Positions 13,856-14,643 of a DNA stretch of 64,000 bases are shown here, piece by piece; the first letter of the stretch is position 1; every line of letters starts with the position of its first letter. Made by a program: the position numbers and the translations under genes. This DNA comes from Candidatus Hadarchaeota archaeon. GTDB taxonomy: Archaea > Hadarchaeota > Hadarchaeia > Hadarchaeales > JAGGTB01. Under the pieces are notes generated by a model. It made no database searches. It was not told where the DNA came from and worked only from the letters and a program-made list of their open reading frames with translations. Location of the stretch: the NCBI GenBank assembly GCA_964384105.1, contig CAYLJV010000001.1, positions 96,001 through 160,000 on the forward strand, in the 5' to 3' direction.

Positions 13856-14086
13856 ATGGACGTAATTACTGGTATAGCACTAATTTCGGCGGGCCTTGCT
13901 ATAGGTGGCGCTGGCCTAGGTTCTGGGATAGGATTGGGTAAAGCGGGGGAAGGAGCAGCTCATGGAGCTGAGGATAATCCCAAGACTTTTGGTCAACAGC
14001 TGGTACTTGCTACTATACCGATGACGCAGGCTATTTATGGTCTTATTGTGGCTATCTTGGTTTTGAAAAATTTTGGAGTGATCTAA
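13856..14086 (+). CDS. atpK: A-ATPase proteolipid c paralog 1 (no ion-binding Glu; PMTQ-x2-Y)
   Basis: GxGxGxG single hairpin; Met occupies the Glu position. Confidence 0.88.
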
Positions 14087-14132
14087 GTAACAAGATTAAT
14101 AAGCAAATTGGGAAAATTCTAGGTGAGAGAAA

Positions 14133-14378
14133 ATGGTTGATGTGGGATTGGAAATTGGACTGGGTATAGCTGCGATAGCTTCAGGTCTTGCCATAGGAGC
14201 GTCAGGCCTTGGTTCGGGTGTTGGTCAAGGGATAGTAACTCGAGCCGCTGCTCAGGAAGCTGAAGAGGATCCTGGTTTCTTTGGTAAAGGGTTATTATTG
14301 TCAGTATTACCTCAGACTCCCGTAATATTTGGATTAGTGGTAGCTATCTTGATCTTAATAAATTCACAGTTATTTTAA
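14133..14378 (+). CDS. atpK: A-ATPase proteolipid c paralog 2 (no ion-binding Glu; PQTP)
   Basis: GxGxGxGQG single hairpin; Gln occupies the Glu position. Confidence 0.88.
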   Translation: MVDVGLEIGLGIAAIASGLAIGASGLGSGVGQGIVTRAAAQEAEEDPGFFGKGLLLSVLPQTPVIFGLVVAILILINSQLF

Positions 14379-14409
14379 AAATTAAAAATATAATCGGAGG
14401 TAGAAAAAT

Positions 14410-14643
14410 ATGGTTACGTTAGAAGCAGCCGTTGCAACTATCGGTGCAGGTCTTGCTATAGGCGGTGCCGGTCTAGGTTCTGGAATAGGTCAGGGTATTG
14501 CCGCAGCCGCGGCAGCCGGAGCTACAGCTGAGGACCCAGGTTTCTTTGGTAGAGGTTTGGTATTTACAGTGCTTCCAGAAACTCAGGTTATCTACGGCTT
14601 GGTTGTTGCCATACTTATCCTAGCTGGTGTAGGAGTGCTCTAA
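14410..14643 (+). CDS. atpK: A-ATPase proteolipid c paralog 3 (Q...PETQ-x2-Y, Na+-type site)
   Basis: GIGQG in helix 1 and PETQVIYG in helix 2. Confidence 0.93.
   Translation: MVTLEAAVATIGAGLAIGGAGLGSGIGQGIAAAAAAGATAEDPGFFGRGLVFTVLPETQVIYGLVVAILILAGVGVL

Follow-up and report, generated by a model that had tools for sequence, protein, structure and literature searches.

Glutamate-less single-hairpin c-subunit genes in an A-type ATPase operon of a Hadarchaeota archaeon, and the heteromeric rotor ring they may form

The stretch of DNA under study, 64,000 nucleotides from a Candidatus Hadarchaeota archaeon (assembly GCA_964384105.1, contig CAYLJV010000001.1, positions 96,001 to 160,000) and referred to below as the window, carries an A-type ATPase operon headed by three separate genes for single-hairpin c (K) subunits, here called c1, c2 and c3, which lie directly 5' of the genes for subunits E-C-F-A-B-D (Table 1). 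Only c3 possesses the helix-2 glutamate (Glu) or aspartate (Asp) of an ion-carrying subunit, namely Glu57, the corresponding residues being Met56 in c1 and Gln61 in c2. Our preferred interpretation, held with moderate confidence, is that c1 and c2 would co-assemble with a Na+-binding c3 into a heteromeric K ring having fewer Na+ sites per hairpin.

The key columns of the alignment comprise Leu27 and I-P-M56-T-Q-A-I-Y61 in c1, Gln32 and L-P-Q61-T-P-V-I-F66 in c2, and Gln28 and L-P-E57-T-Q-V-I-Y62 in c3; Thr57, Gln58 and Tyr61 are retained in c1, and Pro63 and Phe66 of c2 occupy the positions of the Gln and Tyr of c1 and c3. Matches to the Pfam family ATP-synt_C (PF00137) are far beyond chance for c1, c2 and c3, with E-values of 1.8e-16, 8.6e-16 and 3e-21 (60.5, 58.4 and 75.9 bits against a cut-off of 24), and cover model positions 1-59 or 1-60 of 60. 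Across the three proteins 31 columns are invariant, the glycine-rich packing motif of helix 1 among them, and the helix-1 glycines G13, G17, G20, G22, G24, G26 and G28 (c1 numbering) are identical in all three. By fold and sequence c1 and c2 are members of the proteolipid family, yet they are predicted to be unable to carry an ion because the membrane-buried Glu or Asp is replaced by Met56 and Gln61. The bit scores of c1, c2 and c3 (56, 57.9 and 81.9) fell short of the cut-offs (101-211) of the NCBIfam models for 'V-type ATP synthase subunit K', i.e. NF004913, NF005124, NF011483, NF006219 and NF004888, of which four are multi-hairpin models (159-220 positions) and NF004888 has 102 positions. 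No c hairpin other than these three was found in the whole genome of the window (1.62 Mb, 90% complete), where they represent 3 matches among 8 candidates scored.

Rather than being joined as hairpins of a fused multi-hairpin c subunit, c1, c2 and c3 are three separate open reading frames (ORFs), and the same structure is found on contigs from other sequencing runs. The initial annotation, made from the letters alone, had described the three signatures, intact ORFs with their own starts, and AT-rich spacers of 31-46 nt, and it was correct in every detail; the G+C content of the window is 40%, as compared to 30% and 19% in the spacers. The genes occupy reading frames 2, 0 and 1, each with its own ATG and stop codon, so that a single error in one fused gene could not account for them; a fused gene disrupted by sequencing errors was rejected on account of the three frames, the separate ribosome-binding sites and the same layout in independent contigs. 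Tandem strain variants brought together by mis-assembly were likewise rejected, as the genes share merely about 55-59% identity at the DNA level (protein identities are 37/76, 41/76 and 45/77). Contigs independently assembled from other public runs bridge c1-c2, c2-c3 and c1-c2-c3, and the tandem is therefore no assembly artefact of this genome. The cluster is carried by contigs of four runs from three studies, representing microbial mat, freshwater sediment and brine.

In the Enterococcus hirae K subunit NtpK the Na+ is coordinated by Glu139 and Gln110 from hairpin 2 together with Thr64, Gln65 and the backbone carbonyl of Leu61 from hairpin 1, with Tyr68 stabilising the Glu, and the ligand set of Na+-binding c/K subunits according to Mulkidjanian et al. 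(2008) comprises a helix-1 Gln or Glu, the helix-2 Glu, the adjacent Ser or Thr, the next polar residue and the stabilising Tyr (PMC2359735). In a comparison of c1 with solved structures the best match was hairpin 1 of NtpK, at 39.8 bits versus 20.2 bits for hairpin 2, whereby I54, T57, Q58 and Y61 align on Leu61, Thr64, Gln65 and Tyr68, and Met56 on Gly63. Gln28 and Glu57 of c3 align on Gln110 and Glu139, and c3 additionally aligns, through hairpin 1, on Thr64, Gln65 and Tyr68. The complete ligand set thus present in c3 points to Na+ coupling. On the three-hairpin model NF004913, c1 and c2 fall on hairpin 1 and c3 falls on hairpin 2. These alignments, of the donor residues on NtpK hairpin 1 and of c3 Q28/E57 on Gln110/Glu139, uphold the earlier suggestion that c1 could donate T-Q-x2-Y in trans to c3.

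The expression and incorporation of c1 and c2, the order and stoichiometry of the ring and its Na+ coupling are what we infer, a mechanism for which the logic of these signatures and the selection acting on the sister genes (see below) provide good grounds. Both c1 and c2 would be made and would sit beside c3 in the K ring as subunits carrying no ion. Each Na+ site would lie between neighbouring hairpins, the preceding one giving the backbone carbonyl, Thr, Gln and the stabilising Tyr, and the following one giving the helix-1 Gln and the Glu. In such an arrangement c1 would be a pure donor, its Thr57, Gln58 and Tyr61 being kept and Leu27 and Met56 standing on the acceptor side, and c3 would be donor as well as acceptor, which means that c3-c3 contacts must exist; c2 has kept neither, Pro63 and Phe66 standing in place of donor ligands and Gln61 in place of the carboxylate. 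The hairpins are predicted to follow one another as c1, c3 (in one copy or more), c2 and again c1, giving n sites per n+2 hairpins and a single, fully apolar c2/c1 interface. How many ion sites a c ring contains determines the ion/ATP ratio and with it the balance between a synthase working at low driving force and a strong pump. Compared with a ring of c3 alone, the mixed ring would pass fewer Na+ for each ATP, and would thus be a pump in a higher gear or a synthase whose ion cost is reduced. Conservation of Thr, Gln and Tyr under selection in c1 and its sister paralogs would make sense only beside a Glu-bearing neighbour. In species with one Glu-less paralog the donor ligands are intact (PQTQAIY, PQTQVVY), and only here, where there are two, have they been lost in one; this restriction of donor loss to the genome with two Glu-less paralogs may be considered the strongest internal sign of defined ring neighbours. 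A more far-reaching proposal, which is possible but clearly the less probable, is that of a variable-gear ATPase with three different free hairpins in defined order, namely c1, several copies of c3 and then c2. As the dead hairpins would be separate gene products, the cell could alter the number of Na+ sites per turn, and hence the ion/ATP ratio, through expression, and the system would illustrate, in an extant organism, how sites can be lost ahead of fusion, or with no fusion at all, on the way towards V-type proteolipids.

That Glu-less hairpins are normally encountered within fused proteins, as the initial annotation had stated, is upheld by an exhaustive HMMER search of 1.84 billion proteins with c1, which returned 718 matches at E-values up to 0.001; the best 150 of these 718 were examined and hairpins were called in 149. 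Ninety-nine are multi-hairpin proteins with at least one Glu-less hairpin, this being the first hairpin alone in 70 and other hairpins in 29; a further 21 multi-hairpin proteins have Glu throughout and five are single hairpins with Glu. In the remaining 24 one Glu-less hairpin was called, of which 22 measure 89-198 aa, and several of these longer proteins look like pieces of fused proteins. Against the 99 multi-hairpin proteins stand, among the best 150 of 718, two Glu-less proteins of hairpin length, P0089 and P0106, both from this lineage. Among fused archaeal K subunits with at least three hairpins the first hairpin lacks Glu at 15 of 16 loci examined, and the typical protein has V or A with PQTQxIY in the first hairpin, Q with PETQAIY in the middle and a last hairpin as in Q with SETFAIF (the helix-1 residue being given before the helix-2 motif, here and below). 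In this last hairpin the donor ligands have been lost, as its neighbour is the dead first hairpin of the subunit that follows. Met commonly takes the place of the Glu in such first hairpins, about 15 fused representatives having PMTQ, and c1 (L with P-M-T-Q-A-I-Y) displays the same first-hairpin signature, lacking Glu and the helix-1 Gln and having Thr-Gln-x-x-Tyr; the closest fused proteins are only 40-50% identical. A word-indexed protein search with c1 recovered only its own cluster (1 match among 7 candidates), a scan of Joint Genome Institute (JGI) metagenome contigs with c2 returned a single distant locus (L122) with an ordinary c gene (E with PETIVIF), and a scan of genome contigs with P0089 gave three unrelated, distant matches only. 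The searches also brought to light c proteins of three to five hairpins in which most or all hairpins lack Glu (P0099, P0131, P0152, P0175, P0180 and similar). There is one Glu-bearing hairpin each in P0099, P0131, P0175 and P0180 and none in P0152, and the Glu-less hairpins of this class read x-Q-T-P-x-I-F, which is the c2 motif.

The distribution of these genes was established for the Hadarchaeota, for which 41 genomes of the order and 66 of the phylum were searched (labelled by G numbers, G000 being the window's genome). A fused two-hairpin K, recognised by a pair of PF00137 matches within a single open frame (152-176 aa), is present in 31 of the 41 order genomes, and only single-hairpin c genes are present in eight, the window's own included; of the other two, G033 has a single match in a 73-aa open frame and G032 has none. 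All 22 fused loci examined carry V with PGTQG(I/F)Y in the first hairpin and Q with (V/P)E(L/T)YAIL in the second. Single-hairpin c genes were located in G007, G034 and all genomes of the window's genus except G001, and a search of all 66 phylum genomes with c1 left this distribution unchanged. The Glu-less single-hairpin clade is restricted, among the 66 genomes, to this genus, where it occurs in five of seven genomes: besides c1 and c2 there is a second single-hairpin gene in each of G003, G005 and G006 (A with PQTQAIY) and in G004 (Q with PQTQVVY). Glu-less genes were found only in those genus genomes that have a single-hairpin Glu-bearing c (G000, G003, G004 and G006) and in G005, which is 65% complete and has no assembled Glu-bearing c; none was found in the 31 genomes with fused c. 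The closest relative of c1 listed is P0089 (M with TMTQVIY), 64% identical and with Met at the Glu position, from 'candidate division MSBL1 archaeon SCGC-AAA382M17', and the ortholog of c3 in the sister species is their one operon c gene, which in G002 is 92% identical. G001, of the same genus, has a fused two-hairpin c and an A-subunit open frame of at least 1030 aa (L116:2-3091, minus strand); this is about 430 aa longer than the A subunit of the window, which suggests an intein, and if so there would be two different ATPase lineages in one genus.

The sister Glu-less genes are under very strong purifying selection, as strong as that acting on the Glu-bearing c. Between G005 and G006 the gene shows 32 synonymous and 0 nonsynonymous differences, and the ratio of nonsynonymous to synonymous substitution rates (dN/dS) between G003 and G005 or G006 is 0.043-0.048, as compared to 0.035-0.12 for Glu-bearing operon c orthologs of the c3 type. 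By the usual dN/dS test the sister Glu-less paralogs are thus predicted to be functional, and the relaxed selection that would have spoken against the initial proposal was not encountered in these sister genes, which have dN/dS values of 0-0.05 and are thus not decaying. Synonymous sites are saturated between c1, c2, c3 and the sister paralogs, and these are therefore old lineages and not fresh copies. Relatives of both c1 and c2 moreover keep the odd residues, Met at the Glu position in P0089 (64%) and PQTPVIF in P0001, which is 91% identical to c2; P0072 (99% identical to c1) and P0002 (Q with PQTQVIY, 63% identical to c2) are intact. Within the cluster of a related strain indels are confined to spacer 2 (14383, 14385 and 14391), and the only variants inside c1 or c2 among 40 positions listed (with 94 further) are at 14246 and 14339, both at third codon positions and read as synonymous.

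In G003, G005 and G006 the lone Glu-less gene has a 138-aa gene on one side and an intron-bearing tRNA on the other, and it is situated 5' of the genes for EndA and a Trp/Tyr-tRNA synthetase, with the tail of the ATPase operon adjoining it in G003 and G006; in G004 it is found just 3' of the Trp/Tyr-tRNA synthetase gene. The corresponding place is preserved in the window (Table 1), where no c gene lies between the 140-aa gene and the tRNA, which are separated by 130 bp only. The Glu-less genes of the window instead occupy a new place directly 5' of c3. The operons of G002, G006 and G007 have the order H-I-c-E-C-F-A-B-D with one Glu-bearing c each, and on short contigs I-c is seen in G003 and I-c-E-C in G004; compared with these sister operons, the window has three c genes in place of one, and I and H have moved, inverted, to the far end. 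The placement of I and H looks like an inversion that transcriptionally parts the stator a subunit from the c genes, and together with the new place of the Glu-less genes it points to a rearrangement that brought the latter into the operon.

Several observations weigh against the proposed ring. G002 (87% complete), G007 and G034 all use the same kind of single-hairpin c, yet the searches recovered no Glu-less gene from them, and the paralog is therefore not obligatory for this type of ATPase. One contig of run X5 (depth 5.6), from a strain about 96% identical upstream, joins position 13906 to 14464, i.e. codon 17 of c1 to codon 19 of c3 over 14 nt of shared sequence, and has 11 differences in the 307 nt upstream. 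Such contig joints can stem from other organisms; if real, this one would represent a close variant with a single chimeric Glu-bearing c consisting of the c1 N-terminus and the c3 body, and c1 and c2 would therefore be dispensable in some strains. The proteins of a related 1066-bp contig show about 7 changed residues out of 81 in c2 as against 1 out of 76 in c1, and c2 may therefore be under weaker constraint. Among the public runs searched no RNA sequencing run holding the stretch was found. The assemblies of G002, G007 and G034 with a Glu-bearing c alone, the possible single-c variant of X5 and the sister Glu-less gene being monocistronic and unlinked from the operon, with expression therefore not tied to the ATPase genes, would all suit an explanation in which c1 and c2 are made without being stoichiometric ring members, and serve instead as an assembly aid, as occasional or condition-dependent inserts or as non-rotor hairpins, the ring being mostly pure c3. 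We consider this unlikely, as the packing glycines and the loop show the conservation of genuine ring subunits, selection has preserved the donor Thr, Gln and Tyr in c1 and the sister paralogs, the c1 and c2 genes lie inside the operon in this genome, and no Glu-less gene was found in any of the fused-c genomes searched.

With regard to their origin, a maximum likelihood tree of 82 hairpins and 74 columns (17 long-branch or duplicate rows having been dropped beforehand) placed nine Glu-less singles, c1 and c2 among them, in one clade (support 99/94), and 18 Glu-less first hairpins of fused subunits on their own side of a branch (100/99). In the best tree the Glu-less clade joins the Glu-bearing c of the same genus (68/89.8, not significant), and forcing the Glu-less singles and the first hairpins together costs 4.7 log-likelihood units, a union that the approximately unbiased (AU) test does not reject (p 0.224). 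Belonging to one clade, c1 and c2 are therefore two members of a single paralog family and not hairpins 1 and 2; the idea that the cluster is the split or pre-fusion state of a triplicated proteolipid accordingly fails in so far as c1, c2 and c3 do not correspond to hairpins 1, 2 and 3, and persists in so far as fission is not rejected. Duplication of a single-hairpin gene is, in our view, the more probable origin. Fission of a fused multi-hairpin K gene into c1, c2 and c3, a rival as regards origin only, might be read from the unrejected AU test, from the c1 signature (a hydrophobic helix-1 residue and P-M-T-Q-x-I-Y), which equals that of fused first hairpins, from the alignment of both c1 and c2 to hairpin 1 of NF004913, and from T-P-x-x-F of c2, which recalls some last hairpins. 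It is rendered improbable by the best tree, which sets the nine Glu-less singles with the genus's Glu-bearing c and apart from the 18 first hairpins, by c1 and c2 being clade-mates, by the sister Glu-less gene lying kilobases from the operon c gene, and by the low identity to even the closest fused proteins. Least probable of all is that c1 and c2 are functionless, redundant duplicates in the course of being lost and intact by chance, since, despite the loss of the carboxylate (the sole residue essential for transport), the faster divergence of c2 than c1 in the one related strain known and the possible deletion variant of X5, the ORFs are all intact, hydrophobic and of hairpin length at saturated synonymous sites, with intact orthologs (P0089, P0002, P0001 and P0072), sister genes at the dN/dS values given above and related-strain indels confined to the spacer.

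The features of the window that bear on the c cluster are compiled in Table 1. The AT-rich stretch upstream of c1, judged against the BRE (B recognition element)/TATA consensus, is a possible promoter of a c1 transcript with little or no leader, and the best Shine-Dalgarno motif of the three c genes appears to be that of c3. The stem-loop between c3 and E could be a partial terminator or an mRNA-stabilising element, and may lift the c1-c2-c3 message above the rest of the operon. The pair formed by the DUF61 gene and the gene for a 100-aa membrane protein is also found 3' of D in G003 and G006, and its products may be unrecognised companions of this ATPase. Directly 5' of c1 there is an archaemetzincin-like gene (13238-13768, plus strand; Peptidase_M54, 2.1e-29), which is separated from the tRNA synthetase gene by two radical SAM genes. 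The tRNA, which is 139 nt long and thus has an intron of about 65 nt, lies directly 5' of the EndA gene and is also present 3' of the lone Glu-less c in G005 and G006; ARAGORN reported no tRNA at 9100-9700, and it was found by Rfam instead.

Table 1. Features in and around the c1-c2-c3 cluster (window coordinates).
Feature	Position	Strand	Remarks
Syntenic place of the sister Glu-less gene	8764..11260		No c gene within 130-bp gap
140-aa gene	8764-9186	-	42% identical to G006 counterpart, E 9e-36
Intron-bearing tRNA	9316-9454	+	Rfam, 45.2 bits
EndA (tRNA-splicing endonuclease)	9623-10159		
Class I Trp/Tyr-tRNA synthetase	10160-11260		
Candidate BRE/TATA promoter	13815..13835	+	AT-rich GAAAAGTTTTTTAGTA, about 25-40 nt 5' of c1 ATG
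c1	13856..14086	+	76 aa, ATG start; single-hairpin c/K subunit without carboxylate (Met56) or helix-1 Gln (Leu27)
Spacer 1	14087..14132	+	46 nt, 30% GC; AGGTGAG 14121-14127, putative ribosome-binding site of c2
c2	14133..14378	+	81 aa, ATG start; single-hairpin c/K, helix-1 Gln32, Gln61 replacing Glu
Spacer 2	14379..14409	+	31 nt, 19% GC; GGAGGT 14396-14401, putative ribosome-binding site of c3
c3	14410..14643	+	77 aa, ATG start; single-hairpin c/K, full Na+ motif Gln28, Glu57, Thr58, Gln59, Tyr62
Stem-loop then two short T runs, between c3 and E	14654..14690	+	Centroid -19.8 kcal/mol, z -2.58, 3/200 shuffles as good
Subunit E	14719-15342	+	Pfam vATP-synt_E
Subunit C	15356-16519	+	Pfam vATP-synt_AC39
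Subunit F	16520-16843	+	NCBIfam
Subunit A	16848-18653	+	NCBIfam ATP_syn_A_arch, 983.8 bits; 601 aa
Subunit B	18656-20053	+	NCBIfam ATP_syn_B_arch, 843.7 bits
Subunit D	20059-20694	+	NCBIfam
DUF61 protein	20737-21162	+	3' of D
100-aa membrane protein, no family match	21159-21461	+	3' of DUF61 gene; feature pair 20737..21461
Subunit I/a	21504-23489	-	Pfam V_ATPase_I; convergent with operon
Subunit H	23492-23806	-	NCBIfam AhaH; convergent with operon

Rings are generally accepted to have arrived at a reduced number of sites through duplication and fusion of genes, a carboxylate being lost afterwards. What would be new here is the clade of free Glu-less single-hairpin c subunits in one Hadarchaeota genus, the principle being known already from V-type fused c subunits and the hybrid ring of Acetobacterium woodii; mixed rings with ion-less units are known so far only where those units are fused, and the ring of this archaeon is probably mixed. 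Our literature search turned up neither an account of free archaeal c subunits lacking Glu nor a paper on c subunits of Hadarchaeota or MSBL1, the MSBL1 results being swamped by general ATPase papers and hence uninformative. ProAD flags as 'non-catalytic' 41 A-ATPases with a K lacking Glu or Asp (PMC11738941); these show the same lack of a carboxylate and stem from bulk genome surveys, and the text consulted gives no taxa, gene structure or interpretation in terms of ring partners, though its supplements may list these genomes. If the proposed ring is real, free and strongly selected Glu-less hairpins in archaea would represent a second route, that of duplication without fusion, and would raise the matter of what controls the order and ratio of hairpins that are not covalently linked, for which three 8-kDa proteins encoded in one operon would provide a small, tractable system to study the rules of ring assembly. 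Such genes currently carry annotations such as 'subunit K', 'hypothetical protein' or 'non-catalytic', and the findings may serve as a warning to annotators.

Among known systems the fused multi-hairpin A/V-type K subunits, such as E. hirae NtpK (PDB 2BL2) and the two-hairpin K of most Hadarchaeota, likewise have fewer sites than hairpins. Their Glu-less donor first hairpin, their middle hairpin with Gln and Glu-Thr-Gln-x-x-Tyr and their donor-less last hairpin divide the labour much as c1, c3 and c2 are predicted to do. In contrast to these proteins, c1, c2 and c3 are separate polypeptides encoded by separate genes in three frames, and their order and ratio are therefore not set by covalent linkage; furthermore, the last hairpins of fused K keep Glu, which c2 lacks, and the tree puts c1 and c2 outside the first hairpins. 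The K types of Pyrococcus and Methanocaldococcus are further fused multi-hairpin examples. The eukaryotic V-ATPase ring of c, c' and c'', PDB entries of which are likewise present among the structure matches of our proteins, is also heteromeric, being composed of paralogous proteolipids in fixed order, an arrangement that in the present case is predicted from genes; unlike c1, c2 and c3, however, c, c' and c'' are fused proteins of four or five helices with low identity to the three proteins described here, and each has its own essential Glu. To our knowledge A. woodii, with its bacterial F-type ring, provides the only mixed ring that has been studied well. As described (PMC9171764; preprint 10.64898/2026.10.01.756066), the F1Fo hybrid ring of this organism comprises nine single-hairpin c2/3 subunits and one four-helix c1 with a single site, and the ring structure, PDB 4BEM, is present in the structure-match table of our c1. 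As far as these sources describe it, the A. woodii system differs in being of the bacterial F-type and in having its Glu-less hairpin fused to a Glu-bearing one, with no free Glu-less hairpin, and resembles the Hadarchaeota system in having several c genes per operon, a ring of unlike subunits (predicted in our case) and at least one hairpin without a site.

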